12,072 nt of DNA from Planctomycetota bacterium (GCA_031254915.1 JAIRTL010000009.1:1-12072), one strand, 5' to 3'; shown: positions 505-12,072, numbered from the stretch's first letter. Numbers and translations: made by a program. The notes: generated by a model from the sequence alone, not told the origin.

Positions 505-2088
505 ATGCCAACCGACGAGGAACTCGATCTGTTGCAGTCCGGAAAACGCTTTCCCCCCAGGAATCCGAAAAAGGGCAAATGGGCCAGGAAGGCGATAAAG
601 ACGATGATTATGGGAACGGCACTGGCGTTCGTCGTCGCCCTCCTCGTCTTTGTCGGCCTGTTCATATGGTACGGCTGCCGGATCGAGCCGGAAGGCGACC
701 AGATCGCCATCCTGATCCGCAAAACAGGCGAGGACCTCAAGGCCAACGAAATCATCTCCACCCGCGACGGGCAGAAAGGGATCAAGCTCGAAACCCTCCC
801 CGCCGGTCGCCACTTCTACAACCCGTACGACTGGGACTGGCAGCTCGCGACCGTCACCAACATCCCGGCCGGCCGCCTCGGCGTGGTGACGCGCCTGTAC
901 GGGGACGAACTCCCCGAGGGCGAGATCATCGCGCCCCCCGGGTTCAAGGGGATCGTCGAGGATATTCTTCGCCCCGGCAAGTACAGGATCAACCCGTACG
1001 CCGAACGGGTCGAAGTGTTCGACGCGATCACAATCCGTCCCGGTCATGTCGGCGTCGTCGCCAACCTCGCCGGCAGGGATCCCCTGCACAGCGATCTTCC
1101 CCCGGAAATGAAAAACGTCTTTATCGTCGGCGAAGGCGTCAAGGGGGTGCAGGACAGGACGCTGGGCCCGGGGACGTATTATCTCAACCCCTATCTCCAT
1201 TCGGTCGTGGAGGTGAACCTCCAGAGCCAACGCTTCGCCCTTCAGGGCGAGGACGCCATCTCCTTCCTCACCCAGGACGGCTTCACCGTCGTGGTCGAGG
1301 GGACGCTTGAATTCGCGATCACCCGCGACAGGGCGCCGCAACTGACCAACCAGGTCGGCGACATGGACGACATTCTCAAGAAGATCGTCCTTCCGAAGGC
1401 GCGCGGCTTTTCGCGGATCGAGGGAAGCAAGCACCCGGCGATCGACTTCATCGTCGGCGAAACGCGGCAGGAATTCCAGAACCGGCTTGAGCAGAACCTG
1501 ATCGCCCAATGCGCGCGCTGGGGCATCGACATCCGCTCCATGCTGATCCGGAACATCACTCCGCCCGCCGAGGTGACGGCGATCATCCGCGAGCGCGAGG
1601 TCGCGCTCCAGAACCAGAAGAAGATCGAGCAGCAGATCGAACAGGCGCGGTCGCAGGCGGAACTGACCCGCCAGGAGATGCTTGCCGTCCAGAACCGGGA
1701 AAAGGTGGAGTCGGAGACGGCGGCGATCCGCGCCCGCATCCAGGCGGAACAGGAGCAATCGGTGAAGATCACCTCGAGCATGCGCGAACTCGAGGTCGCG
1801 AAGCTCGAGGCGGAGGCGGCGAAGCTCCAGGCCGACGCCATCATGATCCGGGCCGAAGCCGACCGCGACGTGGTGAAAATGCGGAACACCGCCGAGGCGG
1901 ACGTCGCCAAGGCGATGGTGGACGCGTTCGGCGGCGGCGTGGACCTTGCCCGCTACACGCTCTACAAGAAAACGGCGCCGCTGATCCAGGCGATCGTCTC
2001 CACCGATCGCGCGCCCGGGTTGGGCGGCATTTTCGGTTCGTTCGCGCCGAAGACGCCCGGCGCGGGCGGCGGCGGACAGGGACGCTGA
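505..2088 (+). CDS. Flotillin-like SPFH/band-7 family membrane protein (paralog A): N-terminal TM/hairpin segment, three tandem PG-x-Y-x-NP repeats, SPFH core, long EA-rich coiled coil, Gly-rich C-tail.
   Basis: The 527-aa ORF has a purine-rich SD (GAGGGA) 8 nt upstream of the ATG. A hydrophobic segment MIMGTALAFVVALLVFVGLFIWYG follows a K/R-rich N-terminus. The SPFH-core-like block is FLTQDGFTVVVEGTLEFAI ... IDFIVGETRQEFQNRLEQNL ... GIDIRSMLIRNITPPAEV. The C-terminal heptad-like EA repeats (LEVAKLEAEAAKLQADAIMIRAEADRDV) are typical of flotillin/FloT/YqiK. The antisense 454-aa ORF 394..1758 is a GC artefact. Confidence 0.85.
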   Translation: MPTDEELDLLQSGKRFPPRNPKKGKWARKAIKTMIMGTALAFVVALLVFVGLFIWYGCRIEPEGDQIAILIRKTGEDLKANEIISTRDGQKGIKLETLPAGRHFYNPYDWDWQLATVTNIPAGRLGVVTRLYGDELPEGEIIAPPGFKGIVEDILRPGKYRINPYAERVEVFDAITIRPGHVGVVANLAGRDPLHSDLPPEMKNVFIVGEGVKGVQDRTLGPGTYYLNPYLHSVVEVNLQSQRFALQGEDAISFLTQDGFTVVVEGTLEFAITRDRAPQLTNQVGDMDDILKKIVLPKARGFSRIEGSKHPAIDFIVGETRQEFQNRLEQNLIAQCARWGIDIRSMLIRNITPPAEVTAIIREREVALQNQKKIEQQIEQARSQAELTRQEMLAVQNREKVESETAAIRARIQAEQEQSVKITSSMRELEVAKLEAEAAKLQADAIMIRAEADRDVVKMRNTAEADVAKAMVDAFGGGVDLARYTLYKKTAPLIQAIVSTDRAPGLGGIFGSFAPKTPGAGGGGQGR

Positions 2089-2089
2089 A

Positions 2090-2809
2090 ATGCCGGAGGA
2101 AGCAGGCGCGCCCGGCGATCGCGCGGAAGCGGTCCCCCGCCACCTCCGGATCGACGGCTTCGACGCCTATGTGAAGGCGGACGGAACCGACTACTGGCGG
2201 ATTCTCCGCACATTTTTGCATGGCGGCGTCGAAGCGGAGAATCTGAAGCACAACCGCGGCAAGCGCAAGGTTCACGCGTTCGATTTCGGGGGCAGGCGCT
2301 ACGTCCTCAAGCGCGACCTGATGCGGAGTCTCGGCCTGCGCCACGTTTTTCCCGGCGGCGGCTGGACCTACCACACCAGGATCATGCGCAAGGTCAACCG
2401 GGCGGTCGATCTCGGCTGCCGCGCGACGCCGGACATCTATCTGGTCGCCGAGAGGTGGAAAGGGAGGTTCCGGCAGGAAGCGTTCGTTCTCATGGAATTC
2501 GTCGAGGGAACGATACTGAGGGACGCCGGCGACGCGGGGAATTACCGCGACGCGATCCGCGAGGCGATGCTGGAAATGCACCGGTTCGGCCTCACGCTGT
2601 CGGACGTCAACAGCCGGAATTTCCTGGTCGGTCCGGACGGGGTGAAAGTGATAGACATCGCCTGCCGCTTCCCGGATTTCCTCTCGATCATCAGGGACGG
2701 GCTCAAGGTCAAGGCGCGGTATAACGTGGAATTGCCGGTCACCGGGCTCATGAACCGGTTCTTTGGATTCGCCATAGCGGTTTTTTACACTCTACGCGGG
2801 AAAACATGA
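2090..2809 (+). CDS. Small protein-kinase-like fold protein of the Kdo/WaaP/InaA lipopolysaccharide-kinase (RIO-like) type, embedded between the two SPFH genes.
   Basis: The 239-aa ORF starts 1 nt after the stop of the upstream gene (TGAaATG) and has an AGGGA SD. It has a Gly-rich loop plus Lys (AFDFGGRRYVLKRD) and a hinge-like acidic/hydrophobic motif (FVLMEFVEGTIL). The catalytic-loop-like block GLTLSDVNSRNFLVGPDGVKVIDIA parallels KdkA ICHTDLNAHNILL...LLDFD (D and N conserved, His replaced by Leu). The C-terminal tail GLMNRFFGFAIAVFYTL is hydrophobic. Comparison to KdkA and PF06293 is from memory, not a search. Confidence 0.7.
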   Translation: MPEEAGAPGDRAEAVPRHLRIDGFDAYVKADGTDYWRILRTFLHGGVEAENLKHNRGKRKVHAFDFGGRRYVLKRDLMRSLGLRHVFPGGGWTYHTRIMRKVNRAVDLGCRATPDIYLVAERWKGRFRQEAFVLMEFVEGTILRDAGDAGNYRDAIREAMLEMHRFGLTLSDVNSRNFLVGPDGVKVIDIACRFPDFLSIIRDGLKVKARYNVELPVTGLMNRFFGFAIAVFYTLRGKT

Positions 2810-4674
2810 TGCGCACAAACAACACAAACGGACTGCATGGGGATACGCCGATGAAAGACGCCGACGTCACCGCCATCACCACGGAAAATACGCTGAAAAA
2901 GGGAGGGCCGGGCTTTCTCCGCCGCCGCTTCGGCCTGATCGGCGGCGCGATCGTCGTTCTCGCCGTCCTTTGGGCGATCTGGTCGTGGGGCTTTTGCCGC
3001 TTCTACGTCGGCCCCGGCCAGATGGCGATCATCACGGCGAAGCGCGGCGATCCGCTGGAATCGGGACAGATCCTCGCCAGGCCGGGACAGAAAGGCGTGC
3101 TCGAAGACGTGCTTGGCGAAGGCAGGCACATCTGGAACCCGGTCTTCTACGACTGGGAGATCGTCGACGCCCAATACATTCCGCCGGGGAAGGTCGGCAT
3201 CCTGACCTCGCTCGTCGGCGAAGACCTTCCCCCCGGCGAGTTCCTCGCCGAACCGGGGCAGAAAGGCATCCGCCGGAAAGTCCTCGGTCCGGGCATGTAC
3301 CGCCTGAATCCGCGCGGCTACAGCATCGAGGTCATCGACGCCATGAGCATCCCCATGGGGTTCGCCGGCGTCGTCACCTACCTCAGCAGCGGCGATCTGC
3401 CGGCGAGCGCCTTCGTGAACGACAACGCCGACGAAAAAACCCGCCGCGACATTCTCCAGCCCGGCATCTATTACATCAACCCCCGCGCCCACCGGGTCAA
3501 CGCCGTCGAGGTCGGCGTCAACCAGGTTTCACTTCAGGGGCAGGACGGAGGCATGATCCTCACCAAGAGCGTCACCTTGGACGAAAACAACCTCATGATG
3601 CAGCGGCTGAACCAGAACATCCTCGCCGAACAGCGTCGGCAGCGCGCCGTCTACCAGCAGGACAGGCTGGGCGAGCAAAGCGCCGACCATTCCATCATGG
3701 CGGAAATGATGAACGACCCCGGCGCGCCCGCCAGGGGAATGCTCCGGAAGTCGCTGCCGTCGGCGCAGGCCCCGGGATCGGTCGACGGCCGCGCCATTTC
3801 GCTGGAAAGGGACGTGGCGCCGGCGATCGTCCTCGACCAGTACGTCAACTTCCCCTCCCGGGACGGCTTCGACATCCGGCTCGACATGACGGTCGAGTTC
3901 GAGCTCCGGCCCGAACATCTCGCTTCGATCTACAAGGTGTACGGCGACCTTCCGAGCGTGGTCGACAAGACAATCATGCCGCAGATCCTTTCCATCTCCC
4001 GGAACAAGGGTTCCGCCTACCGCGCCGTCGACTTCATCGCCGGCGAAGGCAGGGAGAAATTCCAGAACGACCTGACCGACACGCTCAAGGAATCGCTCGG
4101 CAAGGAGGACATCACCATCCACAGCGCCCTCATCCGCAACGTCAACGTCCCGGACCAGATTCTCGAACCGCTCCAGGTCGCGTCCCTGTCGCGCGAGACG
4201 GAACTGACCAACCGGGAAAAGCAGAACACCGCCCGCAAACAGGCCGACCTCAACCGGGAAATGTCGCTCATCAAGCAGTTCGGCGAGCAGGTCATGCAGG
4301 AGACGACCAAGCTCAAGGCCGAGATCGACGCCGAGCGCGAAAAGACGGTGGCGATGATCCAGGCGGACACCCTCCGGCGCATGGCGGCGATCGACAGGGA
4401 AACGGCCGGCGTCAGGGCGCAAAAGGTTGTGGCCATCGGCGAGGCGGAAGCCGATGCGCTGCGTCTGATCGAAATGGAACGCGCCATGGGCTTCGGAATG
4501 AAAGTCGCCGCCTTCGGCGCCGAAAGCGAAAATTTCGCGCTCTACGAATTCGCCAACAGCCTCAACCCGGAAATGCGCATCAACCTGCTCCACGCCGGCG
4601 AGGGAACCCTGTGGACGGACCTGCAGCGCGCCGGCGTCGGCGACCTCGGCGGATCGACGCTGCTGCGCGAATGA
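2806..4674 (+). CDS. Flotillin-like SPFH/band-7 family membrane protein (paralog B): same architecture as paralog A plus an ~85-aa Q/R-rich insertion before the SPFH core.
   Basis: The 622-aa ORF start ATGATG overlaps the kinase stop (ATGA), indicating translational coupling. An alternative start is M16 (nt 2851). A TM-like segment GLIGGAIVVLAVLWAIWSWGF follows KKGG..RRR. Repeats PGQKGVLEDVLGEGRHIWNP.., PGQKGIRRKVLGPGMYRLNP.., LQPGIYYINP.. mirror paralog A. The SPFH core FPSRDGFDIRLDMTVEFEL...VDFIAGEGREKFQNDL...ITIHSALIRNVNVPDQI aligns to paralog A residue-for-residue. The C-terminal coiled coil is EA-rich. The alternate-frame R/P-rich 583-aa ORF 2970..4721 and the antisense 400-aa ORF are artefacts. 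Confidence 0.85.
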   Translation: MMRTNNTNGLHGDTPMKDADVTAITTENTLKKGGPGFLRRRFGLIGGAIVVLAVLWAIWSWGFCRFYVGPGQMAIITAKRGDPLESGQILARPGQKGVLEDVLGEGRHIWNPVFYDWEIVDAQYIPPGKVGILTSLVGEDLPPGEFLAEPGQKGIRRKVLGPGMYRLNPRGYSIEVIDAMSIPMGFAGVVTYLSSGDLPASAFVNDNADEKTRRDILQPGIYYINPRAHRVNAVEVGVNQVSLQGQDGGMILTKSVTLDENNLMMQRLNQNILAEQRRQRAVYQQDRLGEQSADHSIMAEMMNDPGAPARGMLRKSLPSAQAPGSVDGRAISLERDVAPAIVLDQYVNFPSRDGFDIRLDMTVEFELRPEHLASIYKVYGDLPSVVDKTIMPQILSISRNKGSAYRAVDFIAGEGREKFQNDLTDTLKESLGKEDITIHSALIRNVNVPDQILEPLQVASLSRETELTNREKQNTARKQADLNREMSLIKQFGEQVMQETTKLKAEIDAEREKTVAMIQADTLRRMAAIDRETAGVRAQKVVAIGEAEADALRLIEMERAMGFGMKVAAFGAESENFALYEFANSLNPEMRINLLHAGEGTLWTDLQRAGVGDLGGSTLLRE

Positions 4675-4717: not shown

Positions 4718-5284
4718 ATGACGGACGTCATCCGCTGCGGCTGGTGCCTCGGCGCCGAAACGTATACCCGCTACCACGACGAGGAATGGGGCGTGCCGCT
4801 CCGGGACGACCGCGGCCAGTTCGAATTCCTTATTCTTGAAGGCGCGCAGGCCGGGCTTTCCTGGTCCACGATCCTCAACAAACGCGGGAACTACCGCCGC
4901 GCCTTCGCCGACTTCGATCCGGAAAAGGTGGCGCGTTTCACGGACAGTCGGATCGAAAAACTGCTCGCCGACCCCGGCATCGTCAGGAACCGGCTCAAGG
5001 TCAACGCCGCGGTCAACAACGCCAGGCGCTTTCTCGAAGTGCGGGACAAGCACGGGTCGTTCTCCGAGTGGATCTGGTCCTTCGTCGACGGCAAACCGAT
5101 CCGGAACGCATGGCGCAGGCTCGACCAGATTCCAGCCTCCTCCCCGAAATCCGACCGCCTGGCGAAGGAGCTCAAGCGCCTCGGCTTCAAATTCGTCGGC
5201 TCGACCATCATTTACGCGCACATGCAGGCGACAGGCATGATTAACGATCATCTCGTGACCTGCTTCCGCCACCGGGAAGTATGA
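4718..5284 (+). CDS. tag: DNA-3-methyladenine glycosylase I (Tag)
   Basis: The 188-aa ORF has a GGAAAGGAAA SD 9 nt upstream. It collinearly matches the Tag signature: RCGWC, YHDEEWGVP, FEFLILEGAQAGLSWSTILNKRGNYRRAF, GIVRNRLKVNAAVNNAR, FKFVGSTIIYAHMQATGMINDHL.TC. The four Zn ligands Cys/His/His/Cys are present. Confidence 0.93.
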   Translation: MTDVIRCGWCLGAETYTRYHDEEWGVPLRDDRGQFEFLILEGAQAGLSWSTILNKRGNYRRAFADFDPEKVARFTDSRIEKLLADPGIVRNRLKVNAAVNNARRFLEVRDKHGSFSEWIWSFVDGKPIRNAWRRLDQIPASSPKSDRLAKELKRLGFKFVGSTIIYAHMQATGMINDHLVTCFRHREV

Positions 5285-5287
5285 CCC

Positions 5288-6046
5288 ATGCCCGGCCGGC
5301 CGGAGCTGCCCCCAATCATCCCGGGCGTCTACCTCGTCGGTACGCCCATCGGCAACCTCGAGGACATCACCCTGCGCGCGCTCCGGGTGCTTGAATCCGC
5401 CAACGTCCTCGCGGCCGAGGACACCCGCGTCACCCGCAAACTTTTTCAAATCCACCAATTGCAACCACCGAAAACGATCTACGCCTGCAACGCCCACACG
5501 GAGGACAAGGTGGCGGAGCGCCTTGTCCGCCACGCGCAAGCGGGAAAAATCGTCGCCTACGCCTCGGACGCCGGCATGCCCGGCATTTCCGACCCCGGTT
5601 GCCGCATCGCCCGGGCGGCCGCGGCGGCGGGCGCGCATCTCGAGGTCATTCCCGGACCTAGCGCGGTTACGACTGCCATCGCCGCCTCCGGTATCAACGC
5701 CGCGTCCTTCACCTTCCTCGGCTTTCCCTCGCGCCGGAACGGACGCCTGCGGGAAGAACTGCGCCGCCACGGCGCGATGCTCCCGGCACTGGTTTTCTAT
5801 GAATCGCCGCATCGGTTGTCGCGACTGCTCGAAATCGCCAGGGAAATGCTCGGCGACGATCGCAATGCTGCAATATGTCTCGAATTGACCAAGAAATTCG
5901 AGCGTTTTTTCCGAGGAAAGTTGAGCGATGTGAGCGGAATTTTTCGCGATGCGGAAGTCCGTGGCGAAGCGGTGGTTGTGATTGCGGGCAAACGAAAATC
6001 GGCACGCGATTTTGCCGAAGGCGACGAAATACTGATTGACAATTAA
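5288..6046 (+). CDS. rsmI: 16S rRNA (cytidine1402-2'-O)-methyltransferase RsmI (tetrapyrrole-methylase fold)
   Basis: The 252-aa ORF starts 3 nt after the tag stop. The N-terminal motif GVYLVGTPIGNLEDITLRALRVLESANVLAAEDTRVT and the block ASDAGMPGISDPG...IPGPSAVTTAIAASG are characteristic of RsmI. Confidence 0.9.
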   Translation: MPGRPELPPIIPGVYLVGTPIGNLEDITLRALRVLESANVLAAEDTRVTRKLFQIHQLQPPKTIYACNAHTEDKVAERLVRHAQAGKIVAYASDAGMPGISDPGCRIARAAAAAGAHLEVIPGPSAVTTAIAASGINAASFTFLGFPSRRNGRLREELRRHGAMLPALVFYESPHRLSRLLEIAREMLGDDRNAAICLELTKKFERFFRGKLSDVSGIFRDAEVRGEAVVVIAGKRKSARDFAEGDEILIDN

Positions 6047-6063
6047 AACCGGATCCATACCAT
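6036..6063 (+). promoter_or_regulatory. Sigma70-like promoter candidate for the downstream small gene: -35 TTGACA (6036-6041, inside the last codons of rsmI), 16-bp spacer, -10-like TACCAT (6058-6063).
   Basis: Hexamers read directly from the sequence. The -10 lies inside the 26-bp palindrome. Promoter consensus for this unknown lineage is assumed to be E. coli-like. Confidence 0.3.
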
Positions 6064-6077
6064 ATATGGTATGGATC
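6052..6077. promoter_or_regulatory. 26-bp perfect palindrome GATCCATACCATATATGGTATGGATC. Candidate repressor operator with an NrdR-box-like AT core. Alternatively an RNA hairpin between rsmI and the downstream ORF.
   Basis: Perfect dyad symmetry verified base by base (6052-6064 pairs with 6065-6077). It sits 6 nt after the rsmI stop, overlaps the putative -10, and ends 20 nt before the start codon of the NrdD-like ORF. The central 16 bp ATACCATATATGGTAT matches about 12 of 16 positions of the NrdR-box consensus acaCwAtATaTwGtgt as I recall it. Confidence 0.4.
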
Positions 6078-6096
6078 GTTGTGAAAGGGACGAAAT

Positions 6097-6420
6097 ATGC
6101 AACTTATGGCGTTTTACGAACACGTGGAGAAGCACCCGGAACTGGAAGGCTTGGGGATCGAGTCCGGTTGTGTCGACAAGAGCGCGGGGGTGATTGTCAA
6201 AAATACCCAAAACAATCTCATGACCCGTCTGCCGGTCGCGGCGATCGAAGCGGCTGACTGGGATGTGATCGAGGATGTGCTCCTTGGCAAACGCGAACCG
6301 CAAGTGTTGCAGCACATGACCCGTGTCGTCGGTTACTTCAGCCGGGTCGAAAACTGGAACAAGTCCAAGGTCGGCGAACTCAGGGACCGCCACAAAGGCG
6401 ATTACTCCGTCGCCGGCTAG
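6097..6420 (+). CDS. Stand-alone glycyl-radical-domain protein homologous to the C-terminus of anaerobic (class III) ribonucleotide reductase NrdD. Possible spare-part or autonomous glycyl radical cofactor analogous to GrcA/YfiD.
   Basis: The 107-aa ORF has an SD AAAGGGA 7-13 nt upstream. The C-terminal motif TRVVGYFSRVENWNKSKVGELRDRHKG matches the NrdD glycyl-radical signature (T-R-V/I-C/V-G-Y ... N-x-G/S-K ... E ... D-R). The same RVxGY motif is shared with PFL and GrcA. There is no catalytic barrel or Zn-ribbon Cys cluster, so it is not a full NrdD. Confidence 0.65.
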   Translation: MQLMAFYEHVEKHPELEGLGIESGCVDKSAGVIVKNTQNNLMTRLPVAAIEAADWDVIEDVLLGKREPQVLQHMTRVVGYFSRVENWNKSKVGELRDRHKGDYSVAG

Positions 6421-6574
6421 TGGATAGCCGAGATCGAGAACGAGGTTCTGGGCGTTTTGCGAAGTTGAATGGACGTCCCATTGCGCATTTCGGCTTGTCC
6501 CATCGCATTCCAAAACGCCAGGTCTTTCGCAATAATCGGGCAACATACCCAAAACGCGGCATCCCCCCGACCTC

Positions 6575-6604
6575 GCGGTCGCCCCACTCCCCCGGGGCGA
6601 CCGC
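6575..6604. terminator. GC hairpin GCGGTCGCCCC-actccccc-GGGGCGACCGC (11-bp perfect stem) in the 315-bp gap between convergent genes. Candidate bidirectional, U-tract-less terminator or other structured RNA.
   Basis: Inverted repeat verified base by base. It lies 155 nt downstream of the plus-strand ORF ending at 6420 and about 130 nt downstream of the minus-strand regulator stop at 6736. No flanking U-run on either strand. Confidence 0.3.
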
Positions 6605-6735
6605 TCCATTTCGCCCCATATATGACTGCCGCAATGCGGGCAATCGCCCGATATGCCTGGCTGGCGGGGAGTCTTTTTTGAAAAAGGGCTTCCCTCCGGC
6701 GCGCTTTCGGAGATGTCCAGGGGGAAGCGGGGCGA

Positions 6736-8994
6736 TCAGCCGCCAATGAGGCGTTCGAGTTGGATTCTTGCGTTACGGAGCGCTTCGGCGGGCGTTTCTT
6801 TTCCCGAGACGGCGGCGTAGACCGCGCCGCCGAGGATGTTTTCGAACACCCGTTCCTCCACTTTTCCCCCGGTCGTGACTTTCGAGATGTTTCGTTCCCG
6901 GCTTTTGGCGAAGCTTTCCACCGATTTCGGCAGCCACGGATACAGGGCGCAGAGTTCGGAGTTGTGATAGACCTTGTTCGCGGGCGGCGCGCCGCCGAGT
7001 ATGGCGAGCGGGATCACGAGGTCTTGGTCGCAGGTCCAGCCGATGAAATCGAGCGCCGAATCGCGCGACCGGCTTTCGCGGTTGACCCCTAAGGTCCAGC
7101 CGCCAAGCATCGGCTTGCCGCCGGGGATGATGTCGTACCCGATGCGCCCGACCACCTTCGAGACGCGCCGGTCGGCGAGCGACGACACGTGCGCGAGGAA
7201 GAGGATCATCATCGCGGCCTGGCCGTCGCCGAAAAGCGCGGCCTGTTCATCCCACCAGAAGTCCTTCGAACCGGGCGGCGCGTAGCGGTAGCTTTCGGCG
7301 TAATTGGCGAGCGCGGCTTCCGCCTCGCGGCTGGCGAGGGAGTCGAGCATGTTTCCAGCCCCGAACGCGCCTTCGTGGAACGAGAGGAAGCGGGGCAGGA
7401 ATTCGCACACCGCGCCGTTCGGGTATTGTCCGCCCAGGGTGGTTCCGTATTCGGTCGGCGAATCGGGATTGAGCGATCTGGTGAAAAACGCCGCGATCTG
7501 ATTGAATTCGTGCCAGTTCCTGGGTGCGCGCAGTTCGTAACGGTAGCGCTTCCGGAAAGCGAACTTGAGGTGCGGGTCGTCGAACAGGTCCTTCCGGTAG
7601 AAAAGAATCTGCGCGCCGAAGAGGAACGGCACGGTATAGCATTTCCCCCCGTGCCGGCAATAGGCGTCGAGCACGCCGGGCAGCCAGGCCGAGGCGAGGC
7701 CGGGGCGGCTGTCGAGCCAGGCGTCAAGCTGGTGGAGAAGGCCGTCCTCGGCGGCTTCTCCGAGCCAGGGCTGGTCGACCTGGAAAATATCGTATTGGGA
7801 GCGCCGGGCCGGATCGCGCAGCAGTTCGCCGATCTCCACGACCGAGCGCTTGTCGATCTCCACCCTGACGCCGGAATTCTTCTGGAACGCGGGAAGCAGC
7901 GCCTCCACGGCCGAGCAGGCGCCGCCGGCGAGCATGAGCGCGCGCAGCACCCTGCCCCGTCCGCGCAGCCTTACCGATTTCCCGATCGTCGGGCCCTGGT
8001 CGGCGTCGAAGCGGGCGTTGTCGACGATCCGCCGCCTGTTCTTCGCGTCGTCGCTCCCGGAAAGCATGCCCAGAAGCAGCGCGGCCGCGCTTTCGCCAAG
8101 CTCCATGGCGTCGCGGCGCAACACCCTCGCCCCCACCGGCGACGCCGGCGCCCAGGATTCGATGCCTAGGCACACAAAGGCGGGCCCGTTGTCGAGTTCG
8201 AGCATCTTCACCGCCTGCCGCGCTCCGGCGAGGAGCTGGCTGGAGGTGGTGATGATTACGTCCGGCGGCGGCGCGACGCCGAGCCTGGAGACAAGTGCGC
8301 TAAAGGCGCTTTCCTTGTTGAAGTTCGTTTCGACCACCAGCCAGTCCCTCGGCGTCCCGCCAAAACGGTCGCCAAGGCCGTCGAGAAAACCGGCGGCATA
8401 GCCGGCTTCGCTCGAATTCTCGCGCGGTCCGGCGAGAAGCAGGGGATTGCGGCAGCCCTCAGCCAGCAATTGGCGCACAAGGTCGCGCATATGCTTTTCG
8501 CCGTCGAAGCCGACGAACGGGAAGACGCGGCGATGCGGCTCGCGCTCGACGAAAACAAACGGCGTGCCGTTGTCGTAGACGCTCTGGAACATCGAGGCGG
8601 AATCGGGCTGGCAGGTGACGATGACGATGCCTTCGGCGTTCTGCTTCACGAACTGCCCTATCGCGCGCTGCTCGCGCGCCTGAATCTCCGAAGTGGTGCA
8701 GAGCTGGACGACATAGCCGTTTTCGCTCAATACCTGGTTGACGCCGGCGTAAATGCCGGCGAACGTGGCGTCCTGAACCGACGGCAATACGACGCCGATG
8801 CACCTGGTCTTTCTCGCCTTGCCGCCGGAACGGGCGGGAAAATGCGCGCGGTAGCCGGTCTTGCGAATCGCCGCCTGAACGCGTTGGACCATGGACAAGC
8901 TGACCCGGCGATCGCCCTTGAGAACATTCGAGACCGTGCCGACAGATACGCCGGCCGCCTCCGCAACGTCCTTCATCGTCGCCTGAAGCGCCAT
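6736..8994 (-). CDS. Fusion transcriptional regulator: LacI-family HTH + LacI-type (PBP type I) sugar-binding domain + a complete family-1 extracellular solute-binding-protein (MalE-like, PBP type II) domain.
   Basis: The long minus-strand ORF is 770 aa from the first in-frame Met at 9048. The likely true start is MALQATMKDV (nt 8994) or MKDVAEAAG (nt 8976), giving about 750 aa. HTH: MKDVAEAAGVSVGTVSNVLKGDRRVSLSMVQRVQAAIRKTGYRAH, a canonical LacI/PurR motif. Residues about 80-340 have the LacI ligand-domain pattern (IGVVLPSVQDATFAGIYAGV...YVVQLCTT...IVIVTC). Residues about 370-770 show SBP_bac_1 features (FQKNSGVRVEID..., YDIFQVDQPWLGE, YTVPFLFGAQILFYRKDLF, WWDEQAALFGDGQAAMMI, GGWTLGVNRES). 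There is no signal peptide, so it is cytoplasmic. The overlapping plus-strand ORFs (e.g. 7189..8169, 8470..9435) are artefacts. Confidence 0.8.
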   Translation of the reverse strand: MALQATMKDVAEAAGVSVGTVSNVLKGDRRVSLSMVQRVQAAIRKTGYRAHFPARSGGKARKTRCIGVVLPSVQDATFAGIYAGVNQVLSENGYVVQLCTTSEIQAREQRAIGQFVKQNAEGIVIVTCQPDSASMFQSVYDNGTPFVFVEREPHRRVFPFVGFDGEKHMRDLVRQLLAEGCRNPLLLAGPRENSSEAGYAAGFLDGLGDRFGGTPRDWLVVETNFNKESAFSALVSRLGVAPPPDVIITTSSQLLAGARQAVKMLELDNGPAFVCLGIESWAPASPVGARVLRRDAMELGESAAALLLGMLSGSDDAKNRRRIVDNARFDADQGPTIGKSVRLRGRGRVLRALMLAGGACSAVEALLPAFQKNSGVRVEIDKRSVVEIGELLRDPARRSQYDIFQVDQPWLGEAAEDGLLHQLDAWLDSRPGLASAWLPGVLDAYCRHGGKCYTVPFLFGAQILFYRKDLFDDPHLKFAFRKRYRYELRAPRNWHEFNQIAAFFTRSLNPDSPTEYGTTLGGQYPNGAVCEFLPRFLSFHEGAFGAGNMLDSLASREAEAALANYAESYRYAPPGSKDFWWDEQAALFGDGQAAMMILFLAHVSSLADRRVSKVVGRIGYDIIPGGKPMLGGWTLGVNRESRSRDSALDFIGWTCDQDLVIPLAILGGAPPANKVYHNSELCALYPWLPKSVESFAKSRERNISKVTTGGKVEERVFENILGGAVYAAVSGKETPAEALRNARIQLERLIGG

Positions 8995-9254
8995 CACTCC
9001 GCCCCCGTCCAAAAATCCGGCCCCGACCCCGGCTCCATGCTTTCGCACCCGCCCTCACCCCGGATCGGCGTTTTCAGCCGGGAGGACGGATGGAGCGATA
9101 CCGCTTCCAGCCAATTAGTGCTTTTTTGCGTCCTTGCAGCTTCCCGCGTTCCACTTCGCGCCATTGTTTTCGAGGGCGTTGGACCAGTCGAGGGAACGGC
9201 AACTTTCGACCGGAAAAGGCATGCGCCCGTTTGTTGTCGCAATCCCCCGCGCTT

Positions 9255-9431: not shown

Positions 9432-10403
9432 TTAGAAGCGCGGCGGGTTCTTGTACATGGCGCTGGTATCCTTGTCCAGGATACGGACGCCGGTGTCGAT
9501 GCCGGCGACGGGTACGTGACCGAAGCCTTCGAACATCGAGGGGATTTCGGTGGGGTGGTGCGCGGCATAGGCGAGCATCATGGCCTGGTAGCCCATGAGG
9601 TAAGGGTTCTGGCCGACGGTGCCCTTGATTTCGCCCTTTTCGATGAGTTCGATGACGGGGAGGCCGAAGTCGAAGGCCATGATCTGGACCTTGCCCTGGA
9701 GGCCGAGGGAGCGGACGGCGGCGGCCGCGCCGGGGCCGGGGTTGCCGTGGGCGCCGAAGATGCCGTTGATTTCCTTGTTGGCCTGGAGCATGGCGGTGAG
9801 CTGCGTTTCCGCCTTGGCGACGTCGCCTTCGTCGTTCACGACCGCGACGATCTGGGCGCCGGGCGCGACTTCCTTGAGGCCGGCCTCAAAGCCGTCCTGG
9901 CGGTTCTTGAGGTGGTCCGGGCCGGGGAAGGTGCAGATGCCGATGCGGGCGTCGTTGCCGAGCCATTCACCCATCGCCTTGCCCGCTTCGTAGCCGGCCT
10001 GGTAGTTGTTGGTGCCGACGAAGCACAGGCGGTTGGAGGCGGGAGCGTCGGAGTCGAAGGTGATGACCGGGATCTTGGCGCGGATGGCGCGGTTGATCGC
10101 CGGGACCAGGGTGTTGGCTTCGCCGGCGGTGACGATGACGCCATCGATCTTCTTGGCGACGAGCTGTTCGATGGCGCGCGCTTCGAGGGTGGCGTCCCAT
10201 TCGGCCGGGCCGTGGAGTTCGGTCTTGACGTGGGGGCCGATCGCCGCGGCGGCGTCGATCATGCCGGCATACGCCCAGTTGAAGAATTCGGAGCCCTTGA
10301 GGAACACGACCATGCCGTAGGTCTCGGTCGGACGCTCTTCGGCGCATGCCGGGGCGGCGAACGCCGCGAGCACGACCAATGCCGCTACCAGAAGTTTCTT
10401 CAT
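9432..10403 (-). CDS. Sugar ABC transporter periplasmic substrate-binding protein (RbsB-like, ribose/xylose/arabinose PBP type I family) with N-terminal signal peptide.
   Basis: The real start is MKKLLVAALVVLAAFAAPACAEE (ATG at 10403), preceded by a perfect AGGAGG 7 nt upstream (plus-strand CCTCCT 10412-10417). The 5' extension of the track ORF to 10949 is Arg-rich junk. The mature domain MVVFLKGSEFFNWAYAGMIDAA...IDGVIVTAGEANTLVPAINRAIRAKIPVITFDSD...GTNNYQAGYEAGKAMGEWL is typical RbsB-type. The AAPAC sequence is not a canonical lipobox, so it is probably SPase I-cleaved. Confidence 0.9.
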   Translation of the reverse strand: MKKLLVAALVVLAAFAAPACAEERPTETYGMVVFLKGSEFFNWAYAGMIDAAAAIGPHVKTELHGPAEWDATLEARAIEQLVAKKIDGVIVTAGEANTLVPAINRAIRAKIPVITFDSDAPASNRLCFVGTNNYQAGYEAGKAMGEWLGNDARIGICTFPGPDHLKNRQDGFEAGLKEVAPGAQIVAVVNDEGDVAKAETQLTAMLQANKEINGIFGAHGNPGPGAAAAVRSLGLQGKVQIMAFDFGLPVIELIEKGEIKGTVGQNPYLMGYQAMMLAYAAHHPTEIPSMFEGFGHVPVAGIDTGVRILDKDTSAMYKNPPRF

Positions 10404-10474
10404 TGCATAATCCTCCTGCATCCATTCACAAGCCGCGCCACACGCGAGGCGAAAAGTATTTCTCCGGTCCGCCG

Positions 10475-11434
10475 TCATTTCCGCCGGCGGTTGAACACGA
10501 ACTCGCCCACGAGCACCGCCAGAAGAAGCATGCCGCCGTTGACGATGTCCTGCCAGTAAGTGGAGATGCCGGTCATGACGAAGGAGCCGTTCACGACGGC
10601 GAGGAAAAGCACGCCCAGAAGCGTCGACAGAATGGTGCCGCTGCCGCCGGAGAGGCTGGCGCCGCCGACGGCGACCGAGGTGATGACCTTCATCTCGGCG
10701 TTCTGCCCGAACGAATTGTTGGCGGCGCCGTATTGCGCGGCGACGATCACGCCGGCGACGCCGGCGAGAAGCGAGCACAGACCGTAGACGAAATAGCGCA
10801 TGCGTTCCACCCGGATGCCGCTCAGGCGGGCGGCGCGCTCGTTGCCGCCGATGAAGTAGACCTGGCGCACGTAGCGGTTGCAGCCGAGGAACACGGCGGC
10901 GAGGACGGCGAGGACGGCGAAGAAATACATGGGGATGGGGATTTCCCATAGGTACCCCTGCCCCATCTCCTGGAAGGGGTCGGGGAAGCCGAACAGGGTG
11001 CGGCCGTCGGTTATGGCCAGGTTGAAGCCTTTGAGGGTGAGCATCATCGCCATGGTGACGATGAACGGATGCACCCTGAGCAGGTTGATCAGTTTGGCGT
11101 TGACGAGCCCGATCGCGATCGAGGCGACGAGGGCGATCGCGACCGCGAGTCCCCAGTGGAGCCCGGCGTTCATGCCCATTGCCGCCGCTATCGCCGCCAT
11201 CGGCAGAACGGCGCTGATCGAAAGGTCGATGCCGCCCGTGATGATGACGAGCGTCATGCCCAGAGACATGATCGCTTCCGGGAGGAAGGACATGAGCGTC
11301 ACCTCGATATTGAACGGCGACAGGAATTCCCCGTAACGCGACGCCATGACGACGATGATGACGGCGTTGGCGAGGATGAGGCCGATGTACTGGAGAGGCA
11401 GACGCTGGAACAGCGATTTGTCAGTTGGCCGCAT
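10475..11434 (-). CDS. Sugar ABC transporter permease (RbsC/AraH-type, BPD_transp_2 family)
   Basis: The 319-aa polytopic membrane protein carries the motif MTLVIITGGIDLSISAV and the family-typical block GGNERAARLSGIRVERMRYFVYGLCSLLAGVAGVI. Its start ATG (11434) overlaps the upstream ATPase stop by 14 nt, indicating translational coupling. Confidence 0.9.
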   Translation of the reverse strand: MRPTDKSLFQRLPLQYIGLILANAVIIVVMASRYGEFLSPFNIEVTLMSFLPEAIMSLGMTLVIITGGIDLSISAVLPMAAIAAAMGMNAGLHWGLAVAIALVASIAIGLVNAKLINLLRVHPFIVTMAMMLTLKGFNLAITDGRTLFGFPDPFQEMGQGYLWEIPIPMYFFAVLAVLAAVFLGCNRYVRQVYFIGGNERAARLSGIRVERMRYFVYGLCSLLAGVAGVIVAAQYGAANNSFGQNAEMKVITSVAVGGASLSGGSGTILSTLLGVLFLAVVNGSFVMTGISTYWQDIVNGGMLLLAVLVGEFVFNRRRK

Positions 11435-12072
11435 AGCGCATCACCTTGGTCTGGGAAAGATTGTCGTTCTGCAAGTCCGCGGACACGCCGCCGTTCCGGA
11501 ACACGAGCACCCGGTCGGAGAGTCCCAACACCTCGGGGAGTTCAGACGAGATGACGATGACGCCGACGCCGCTTTCGGCGAGCTGTCTCAGGTACTGGTG
11601 GATTTTCACTTTCGCGCCGATGTCGACGCCGCGCGTCGGCTCGTCGGCGACGAGGATGGTCGGCTTCGCCGCCAGCCATTTGGCGAGCATCGCCTTTTGC
11701 TGGTTGCCGCCGGACAGGTTGATGATGTTGAGGGTGTCGTTTCGGGGACGAATGTCCAACAACTCGAGGAAATCCTCCGAAACCGCCCTGACCTTGTCGA
11801 AATCGAGGAACTGGAGCTTCGACGAATAGGCGGGCAGGGACGACGAGGCGATGTTCCGCCGCACCGACATGGTGAGGAACAGCCCGAACAGCTTTCTGTC
11901 CTCGGACAGGTAGCACACGCCCTGGCGGATCGCGTCCCCCGGACCGCGAATATCGACTTCGCGGCCCCGCAGGACGATTTTGCCCGAAGACGGCCGTTCG
12001 GCGCCGAAGACGGCGCGCGCCGTTTCCGTCCGGCCGGAGCCGACGAGGCCGGCGAAGCCGAGGATCTCGCCT
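11421..12072 (-). CDS. Sugar ABC transporter ATP-binding protein, RbsA/MglA-like with two NBDs. Only the C-terminal second NBD lies in the window (5' end beyond the window edge).
   Basis: Reading frame is open to the window edge. Second-NBD Walker A: GEILGFAGLVGSGRTE. Signature LSGGNQQK, Walker B ILVADEPTRGVD, then VIVISSELPEVLGLSDRVLVF and a C-terminal ...MRYAAN stop at 11421. The track ORF 11421..11918 is just the Met-initiated tail of this frame. Confidence 0.85.
   Translation of the reverse strand, partial: GEILGFAGLVGSGRTETARAVFGAERPSSGKIVLRGREVDIRGPGDAIRQGVCYLSEDRKLFGLFLTMSVRRNIASSSLPAYSSKLQFLDFDKVRAVSEDFLELLDIRPRNDTLNIINLSGGNQQKAMLAKWLAAKPTILVADEPTRGVDIGAKVKIHQYLRQLAESGVGVIVISSELPEVLGLSDRVLVFRNGGVSADLQNDNLSQTKVMRYAAN

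Follow-up and report, generated by a model that had tools for sequence, protein, structure and literature searches.

A WaaY-family kinase gene in the junction of a conserved SPFH gene pair of Planctomycetota

Two SPFH genes and the kinase gene between them

The DNA considered here (hereafter the window) is a complete 12,072-bp contig from a metagenome-assembled genome (MAG) of a Planctomycetota bacterium (JAIRTL010000009.1 of GCA_031254915.1; locus tags LBJ46_00905 and LBJ46_00910). Three consecutive open reading frames (ORFs) on its plus strand, to which all window features described below belong unless stated otherwise, were found exactly where an initial annotation of this DNA had placed them. 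The first gene (505-2088) encodes SPFH-A (A), a protein of 527 aa (Pfam Band_7, 4.8e-28), the second (2090-2809) a kinase (K) of 239 aa that belongs to the WaaY family (Pfam PF06176, 2.2e-13), and the third (2806-4674) SPFH-B (B), a protein of 622 aa, or of 607 aa when read from an alternative start at 2851 (Pfam Band_7, 2.4e-18). The initial annotation regarded these genes as a hard-wired cassette in which a client kinase is encoded inside a flotillin cage. As argued below, we instead consider it probable that a lipopolysaccharide (LPS)-core-type kinase of the WaaY family was captured in the junction of an HflK/C-like SPFH pair that occurs throughout the Planctomycetes-Verrucomicrobia-Chlamydiae (PVC) bacteria.

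The kinase matches the Pfam family WaaY with 50.8 bits (gathering score 20.3; profile positions 5-201 of 229). With the NCBIfam model RfaY (NF007684) it reaches 84.2 bits, which is under the equivalog cut-off of 248, and its other NCBIfam matches, to Bud32, lanthionine-synthetase and Kdo-kinase models, are faint. Alignment of the kinase family profile with WaaY from E. coli K-12 by hhalign gave 99.8% (E=2.4e-29) over 227 columns (227 of 232 residues) with the C-terminal helix included, while WaaP was matched weakly (63.9%, E=6.6e-5). Hence, the part of the earlier label 'Kdo/LPS-kinase-like' that stands is an LPS kinase of the WaaY type, whereas the Kdo/WaaP type is not borne out. In E. coli, WaaP and WaaY phosphorylate HepI and HepII of the LPS inner core, respectively, in the strict order WaaP, WaaQ (a GT9 protein) and WaaY, and waaY is located in the waa glycosyltransferase operon (PMC4483631). 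The window kinase shares with WaaY/RfaY of E. coli and Salmonella the Pfam family, a full-length alignment, a minimal kinase fold of about 235 aa, the K/D/N/D residues and the C-terminal helix. It differs in lying between two SPFH genes, outside any waa-type glycosyltransferase operon, and a likeness in substrate would be a prediction from sequence. The kinase, which is about 25% identical to E. coli WaaY over the core, represents a new and divergent addition to the WaaY family and is, judged by the profile scores, neither an orthologue nor an equivalog of the enterobacterial enzyme. Its relatives in two other loci discussed below (L010 and L016; L numbers designate the loci compared) also match the WaaY/RfaY models.

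The catalytic set of the kinase comprises the ATP-binding lysine K74 (2309-2311), the catalytic residues D172 (2603-2605) and N177 (2618-2620), and the metal-binding aspartate D189 (2654-2656). Across an alignment of 39 family members, K74, N177 and D189 show no variation, with D172 conserved in at least 90%; the L010 kinase retains the same four residues. Judged by these residues, the enzyme is catalytically intact. Since a PDB search with the kinase sequence returned insignificant matches only (E>=0.28), the fold was assigned via an AlphaFold2 (AF2) model (predicted local distance difference test score, pLDDT, 90.8; predicted template modelling score, pTM, 0.87). This model displays a minimal protein-kinase-like fold with 880 structural matches in the PDB at E<=1e-3, the best neighbours being PknB, Rio2 and the kinase domains of lanthipeptide synthetases (template modelling scores, TM-scores, of about 0.45). 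The protein-kinase fold proposed earlier for the middle gene is thus corroborated by both the PF06176 match and the modelled structure. A hydrophobic and basic helix at the C-terminus (aa 220-235, nt 2747-2794) had been thought of as a feature that docks the kinase to its SPFH neighbours. It is common to E. coli WaaY and to stand-alone homologues, i.e. it is a family-wide trait, and the docking proposal is not upheld.

SPFH-A starts with a transmembrane (TM) segment in N-in orientation (aa 36-57, nt 610-675, from hydrophobicity and charge bias), followed by three beta-repeats (aa 66-238, nt 700-1218), the SPFH core (aa 242-352, nt 1228-1560) and long coiled-coil helices (aa 355-499, nt 1567-2001). 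An AF2 model of SPFH-A (pLDDT 76.9) contains the TM helix, three beta units and the SPFH core, along with long helices that comprise about 145 residues. SPFH-B likewise has a TM segment (aa ~42-64) that precedes beta-repeats, an interrupted SPFH core and a coiled coil. The gene calls, the Band_7 matches and the AF2 model hence agree with the three ORFs and the domain order of the initial annotation, and the proposed paralogy of A and B is confirmed by 37% identity in the TM and repeat region and 30% in the SPFH and coiled-coil region. A register-shifted match between the two proteins confirms the internal repeats, whose motif G.KG[IV]....L.PG.[YH]..NP is present three times in A and twice in clean form in B; the third copy in B is degenerate, as judged by eye. 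Among the candidates scored in searches with SPFH-A, 1,461 were significant homologues, from Planctomycetota, Kiritimatiellia and Spartobacteria, with 57-82% identity. The A/B pair is an uncharacterised, very strongly conserved SPFH subfamily of Planctomycetota, Kiritimatiellia and Verrucomicrobia. As a separate observation, the core of SPFH-B is interrupted by some 90-120 inserted residues with poor conservation (aa ~255-345, nt 3568-3840). The Band_7 match of SPFH-B covers 299 residues (aa 182-480) for a profile of 176 positions; in comparison with L010, the inserted region is gapped and divergent.

The stop of A and the start of the kinase gene are arranged as TGAaATG (2086-2092) with a spacer of 1 nt, while the kinase gene and B may overlap by ATGA (2806-2809). 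Both junctions read as originally described; the conserved start of B, however, is the methionine of 'MKDADV' (M16, ATG at 2851), so that translation of B may in fact not begin at the ATGA. All four A-K-B triads have a tight A-to-K junction, i.e. a 1-nt spacer in the window, -17 nt in L001, ATGA in L008 and 0 nt in L010. Between K and B, an ATGA overlap is possible in the window and L001, and spacers of 44 and about 100 nt are found in L008 and L010, respectively. From the gene arrangement, the window kinase is predicted to be co-transcribed with A and B, and it is probably translationally coupled to A. A weak sigma-70-like sequence 5' of SPFH-A (369-397, TTGGCG-17-TATCAT, 9/12 matches) is a candidate promoter, and a terminator-like hairpin (2-27, no strand assigned) lies upstream of it. 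Scans for promoters and terminators gave no excess over the shuffled expectation (two promoter-like sites versus a shuffle mean of 1.0).

Distribution and history of the kinase gene

A kinase gene is located between A and B in five loci of a single Planctomycetota clade, namely the window, L001/L009 (Planctomycetota isolate Nc350_bin156), L008, L010 and L016. The closest of these, L001/L009, is 82% (A), 64% (K) and 79% (B) identical to the window and agrees with it in the genes that follow B (Tag, RsmI and a small NrdD-like ORF, see the last section). The L008 kinase is about 39% identical to that of the window, and L010 shares 71% (A), 34% (K) and 62% (B). Thus, K identity amounts to 34-64% where A identity is 71-82%. 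The kinase family is small, with 161 clusters (50% identity) at E<=1e-3 and 23 at E<=1e-30 in an exhaustive HMMER search of 1.84 billion representatives. A scan of genome contigs with the single kinase sequence gave no match. With a five-sequence kinase alignment, the genomes yielded only the L001 contig, which was known already, and the metagenomes added L010 as a single new locus; the diversity of the 39-sequence alignment prevented the extraction of a pattern. Stand-alone family members of about 32% identity, which lack SPFH neighbours, are encoded in a deltaproteobacterial genome (L011) and on a metagenome contig (L012). The MAG of L001 encodes a further WaaY-like paralogue that stands alone, P0127, which is about 34% identical to the window kinase and shares a protein cluster with P0278 (LBT97_01465, on a 37,360-bp contig). 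Neighbour-joining unites the SPFH-embedded kinases in a single clade (98% bootstrap), which is separate from the stand-alone members including P0127.

The conserved unit is the A/B pair alone, which occurs PVC-wide. In L005 and in the Kiritimatiellia loci L006/L007, A and B overlap by ATGA and the kinase is absent. Within the window's own clade (A identity 70-84%), A and B of kinase-less loci are 50 nt (L002), 124 nt (L013) and 241 nt (L014) apart. None of the five loci that were reached via SPFH-A matches of 70-80% identity in this clade (L002, L004, L013, L014 and L015) contains the kinase, and tblastn (E up to 1e-2) detected no kinase remnants in the kinase-less A-B gaps. The 1,461 homologues of A as compared to 161 kinase clusters, along with the kinase-less pairs in L002, L005, L006/7, L013 and L014, identify the pair as the core unit. 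The placement of a kinase between A and B, for which the initial annotation had suggested a neighbourhood survey, recurs in five loci, but the kinase is absent from most A/B pairs. Tight or overlapping junctions in one genome are thus insufficient to establish an obligate module.

Several kinase-less loci display further peculiarities. In L015 (4488-8892) and L004 (6393-10434), which are both members of the clade, SPFH-B does not follow SPFH-A, so that the pair can be broken up. A 304-aa ORF without family assignment is found after SPFH-A in L015, with a gene for an FHA-Ser/Thr kinase upstream on the opposite strand, while SPFH-A of L004 is situated among toxin-antitoxin-like genes (PIN, HicA). 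The 124-nt A-B spacer of L013 (7135-7258) contains a long imperfect inverted repeat recognized by eye (AACCACAGAGAGCACAAAGAACA...TGTTCTCTGGGGTT), which could be a hairpin, an element resembling repetitive extragenic palindromes (REP-like) or an insertion scar. Directly 3' of the pair in L005 (11906-15828), a phage-type integrase as well as weak BrxB and BrxC/PglY fragments were detected, and this abutting region is possibly a mobile or defence island.

In the SPFH-A tree, kinase-bearing and kinase-less loci are interspersed; for example, the kinase-less L013 is sister to the kinase-bearing window and L001 with 97% support. The monophyly of the embedded kinases combined with the interspersed kinase-less loci fits a single acquisition in the clade ancestor and several losses. 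Apparently, the kinase entered the A-B junction once and was then repeatedly lost. Between the window and L001, the ratio of nonsynonymous to synonymous substitution rates (dN/dS) is 0.33 for K, 0.15 for A, 0.16 for B, 0.12 for Tag and 0.13 for RsmI, ratios that are approximate as dS is near saturation. The kinase is under purifying selection that is about twice as relaxed as that on A and B, and this ratio together with its lower identity as compared to A points to an accessory character.

L016, whose A is 68% identical to that of the window, offers a glimpse of what else the junction can hold. On one strand, it encodes IspE, SPFH-A, two Glyco_transf_9 (GT9) proteins, a WaaY-like kinase, SPFH-B and a GNAT protein, with the tandem GT9 genes of the heptosyltransferase family (5479-7890) between SPFH-A and the kinase. 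Both GT9 proteins match models for LPS heptosyltransferase I/II (E=1e-14 to 1e-16), with scores under the equivalog cut-offs. The slot between A and B of L016 hence contains an LPS-inner-core-type cassette, in which the kinase gene comes after the heptosyltransferase-family genes just as WaaY acts after WaaQ (PMC4483631). The GT9 genes imply that the LPS inner core of this Planctomycetota clade is of the heptose type and possibly phosphorylated, and the cassette as a whole hints at a phosphorylated core of this kind and at a pair that is maybe tied to envelope biogenesis. In the trees of A and of A+B, L016 is the first to branch off, with weak support (45-51%), and a reduction from the GT9-GT9-K cassette to K alone is plausible. 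The same slot was observed to harbor a different gene in L014 (~7569-7799), which encodes a DUF2442 protein (Pfam, 2.3e-20) and whose ATG overlaps the stop of A as TGATG. The A-B junction hence appears to be a place where small accessory genes land repeatedly.

The three LPS-core-type genes between A and B in L016 and the retention of the kinase in five diverged loci could also be understood as coupling on the pathway level. The A/B pair itself would then act as a scaffold in envelope or LPS biogenesis, for example by modulating an FtsH-like protease or LPS assembly and export, and LPS-core enzymes would have been recruited to its operon. Based on L016 and kinase retention, it is conceivable that the SPFH pair is connected in this way to the biogenesis of LPS or the envelope. 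HflK/C, which A and B resemble in pairing and topology, provide a precedent as they cage FtsH (PDB 7vhq, 7wi3 and 9cz2 are among the structural matches), and so does the control of LpxC and WaaA turnover by FtsH/LapB (PMC6358824). Yet, the link is confined to one clade, the pairs of Kiritimatiellia and others reside among unrelated housekeeping genes (pyruvate kinase, Na/Ca exchanger, proton pyrophosphatase (H+-PPase), arginase and elongation factor P), the slot of L014 is occupied by the non-LPS gene DUF2442, and ftsH, hflX, lapB, lpt or lpx genes were not seen adjoining any A/B pair in the neighbourhoods examined. We therefore regard this reading as doubtful and continue to favor the capture of an accessory kinase by a permissive junction.

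Predicted topology and likeness to known systems

The 15 residues ahead of the TM segments are rich in Lys and Arg, with positive to negative charges at 6:0 in A and 5:0 in B. According to the positive-inside rule, this bias places the N-termini in the cytoplasm and the bulk of both proteins in the periplasm, which is the orientation of HflK/HflC. The SPFH portions of A and B are accordingly predicted to be periplasmic, with cytoplasmic N-terminal tails of 35-42 residues. For the kinase, a signal peptide was not found and no 19-residue window exceeded a Kyte-Doolittle value of 1.6 (maximum 1.35, in the C-terminal helix). Without signal peptide or TM segment, it should be a cytoplasmic protein. 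If the kinase is a membrane-peripheral protein of the cytoplasm and the SPFH assembly is periplasmic, as predicted here, the kinase cannot in any simple sense reside inside the cage.

These predictions bear on the proposal that the kinase serves an A/B hetero-oligomer as dedicated client or regulator. It would insert its C-terminal helix into a ring-enclosed membrane patch and phosphorylate the scaffold or co-enclosed proteins, with a stoichiometry fixed by translational coupling. If this were true, the pair would be one of the rare SPFH scaffolds whose client is defined genetically. The tight A-to-K junctions in four triads, the possible ATGA overlap of K and B in the window and L001, the exact position kept over long divergence and the intact catalytic residues are all in line with such a relationship, as are the protein-kinase-like fold with Ser/Thr kinases as top structural neighbours and the cytoplasmic tails of A and B, which a membrane-peripheral kinase could reach. 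Against this, most A/B pairs, including all five clade loci found via SPFH-A, do without the kinase, and the SPFH bulk and the kinase are predicted to reside in opposing compartments. Moreover, the C-terminal helix, being present in E. coli WaaY and stand-alone homologues, is no SPFH-specific adaptation, the GT9 neighbours in L016 indicate glycolipid chemistry, the K-to-B spacers of L008 and L010 break the coupling, and the evolutionary rate of the kinase is two to four times that of its presumed partners. A client role of this type is quite unlikely in our view, and the kinase-less pairs, the other slot genes of L014 and L016 and the predicted compartments speak against the hard-wired client kinase of the initial annotation. 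The evidence rather favors a more ordinary event, i.e. a conserved envelope operon that carries along an accessory kinase of the LPS-core type.

Among known SPFH proteins, HflK/HflC are similar in forming an adjacent paralogous pair with a single N-in TM segment each and an SPFH domain that is, for A and B, predicted to be periplasmic by the charge heuristic. SPFH-A, however, remains under the equivalog cut-offs of both proteins (TIGR01933, 29.6 versus 159.4; TIGR01932, 18.7 versus 134.4), and SPFH-B has no NCBIfam match. Furthermore, A and B are about twice as long and carry three extra N-terminal beta-repeats, and B has the large insertion in the SPFH core. The structural matches of SPFH-A comprise HflK/C, prohibitin, stomatin, erlin, flotillin, the major vault protein (MVP) and also QmcA, and its similarity to cage-forming SPFH proteins is generic.

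FloA/FloT and flotillin-1/2 share the SPFH core, the EA-rich coiled coil and the hetero-pair of paralogues, and the initial annotation cited them as the conceptual model for a scaffold joined with a kinase. The label 'flotillin-like' was nevertheless rejected, as the Pfam family Flot (PF15975) gave E=5.7 for the window protein and E=0.96 for the best of 36 homologues. Structurally, flotillin ranks under prohibitin and HflC in comparison with SPFH-A. The SPFH domains of flotillins face the cytoplasm, in contrast to the predicted periplasmic location of those in A and B. The clients of FloT are histidine kinases such as KinC that are encoded elsewhere, whereas the WaaY-type kinase is encoded within the operon.

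In SPFH-NfeD operons (QmcA-YbbJ, YqiK-YqiJ and PH1511-PH1510), an SPFH gene is translationally linked to a small partner as well (PMC2636767). The partner in the window is a kinase and lacks the NfeD fold, and it is confined to a minority of one clade, while NfeD linkage defines whole SPFH subfamilies. In the 12-subfamily scheme (PMC2636767), the A/B proteins do not evidently belong to an NfeD-linked subfamily. Within the literature library searched, no paper combines SPFH with WaaY, and the SPFH-kinase-SPFH arrangement is undescribed, as the initial annotation had surmised.

The N-terminal repeats of the SPFH proteins resemble those of MVP structurally, and the architecture of repeats, shoulder, cap and helix is also recovered by structure. 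By sequence, no Vault-family Pfam match was obtained at E up to 10 and MVP was not among the PDB sequence matches. MVP has nine repeats compared to three in A, which in addition is TM-anchored and part of a hetero-pair, and the global TM-scores are low (0.2-0.3), so that the likeness applies on the domain level. Bacterial homologues of MVP were reported from Myxococcales, Cytophagales and Oscillatoriales, but not from PVC bacteria (bioRxiv 10.1101/872010). The repeats of the A/B pair thereby bear on the relation between vault and SPFH cages. A further reading, which we deem unlikely, would have A and B form an unrecognised membrane-anchored, MVP-like periplasmic hetero-cage that functions in LPS or outer-membrane biogenesis and of which the embedded LPS enzymes are a genomic trace. 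If correct, this assembly would parallel the HflK/C-FtsH-LpxC axis by means of a distinct vault-like architecture.

Finally, the initial annotation had entertained a role in abortive infection, that is, an anti-phage membrane module with the SPFH proteins and the kinase as sensor and effector. The patchy occurrence and faster evolution of the kinase, a weak similarity to PD-T4-6 kinases in PADLOC (E=1.2e-4) and the integrase and bacteriophage exclusion (BREX)-like fragments beside the pair of L005 could be cited for it. The PADLOC matches are, however, restricted to the generic catalytic core (aa 125-190), A produces just coiled-coil noise (JetC, LmuB) and B no match at all, and the neighbours are housekeeping genes in conserved synteny (Tag, RsmI). 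In addition, the pair is near-universal with 57-82% identity across phyla, unlike defence genes, and the literature search found no paper that joins SPFH, kinase, operon and anti-phage. With no PADLOC model beyond generic kinase similarity, a defence module is most improbable.

We thus return to capture of the kinase as the favoured explanation. In analogy to every SPFH pair solved so far, and to structural matches such as HflK/C, prohibitin 1/2, erlin 1/2 and flotillin 1/2, A and B most likely co-assemble into a hetero-oligomeric SPFH ring or cage at the periplasmic face of the inner membrane. The kinase gene would have been gained once at the A-B junction in one Planctomycetota clade, presumably as part of an LPS inner-core modification cassette that was cut down to the kinase alone in the lineage of the window and lost entirely in several sister lineages. 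The substrate of the enzyme is most likely a core sugar, in nascent lipid-A-core or in a related glycolipid, and not a protein. Its phosphorylation would occur at the cytoplasmic face of the inner membrane, where the characterised relative WaaY acts on heptose II. Its presence would then reflect capture at a permissive, co-expressed junction of an envelope operon, with no obligate relation between scaffold and client.

A number of observations weigh against this explanation. The RfaY score of 84 versus a cut-off of 248 means that the substrate is not confidently transferable. LPS genes are missing from the 12 kb of the window itself and from the downstream gene set that L001 has in common with it, and the stand-alone kinases of L011 and L012 are not in LPS clusters; a GT9/LPS-core linkage of the kinase is hence seen for L016 and not for the window, L001, L011 and L012. 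With a support of 45-51% for the basal position of L016, the direction of change may have been either reduction of the cassette or later gain of the GT9 genes, and the topology of A and B is a prediction from the positive-inside charge heuristic. Lastly, the kinase is held at exactly this position over deep divergence (34% identity), with A-to-K tight in four triads, and both features could reflect selection for co-expression with A beyond hitch-hiking.

Genes downstream of the pair

Genes for Tag (3-methyladenine glycosylase) and an RsmI-like methyltransferase succeed SPFH-B on the same strand in the window (4718-6046) and in L001 (7328-8613), in both cases after short gaps of 43 nt and then 3 nt. 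This linkage to the pair is lineage-specific synteny, as other members of the clade carry DUF2161, H+-PPase or a flagellar rod gene downstream. Further 3', a conserved ORF of 107 aa (6097-6420; L001, 8819-9142) encodes a C-terminus similar to the last ~30 residues of the anaerobic ribonucleotide reductase NrdD. Its match to Pfam NRDD (E=1.3e-5) is slightly under the gathering score, and the matched region of NrdD carries the glycyl-radical site. By analogy to GrcA/YfiD, the protein could be a stand-alone glycyl-radical 'spare part'. On the minus strand (6736-9048), a 770-aa fusion of a LacI helix-turn-helix domain, a LacI-type sensor of the periplasmic-binding fold and a full SBP_bac_1 domain for extracellular solute binding represents an unusual regulator architecture, and its gene adjoins a sugar ATP-binding cassette (ABC) transporter that is likewise encoded on the minus strand (9432-11918).

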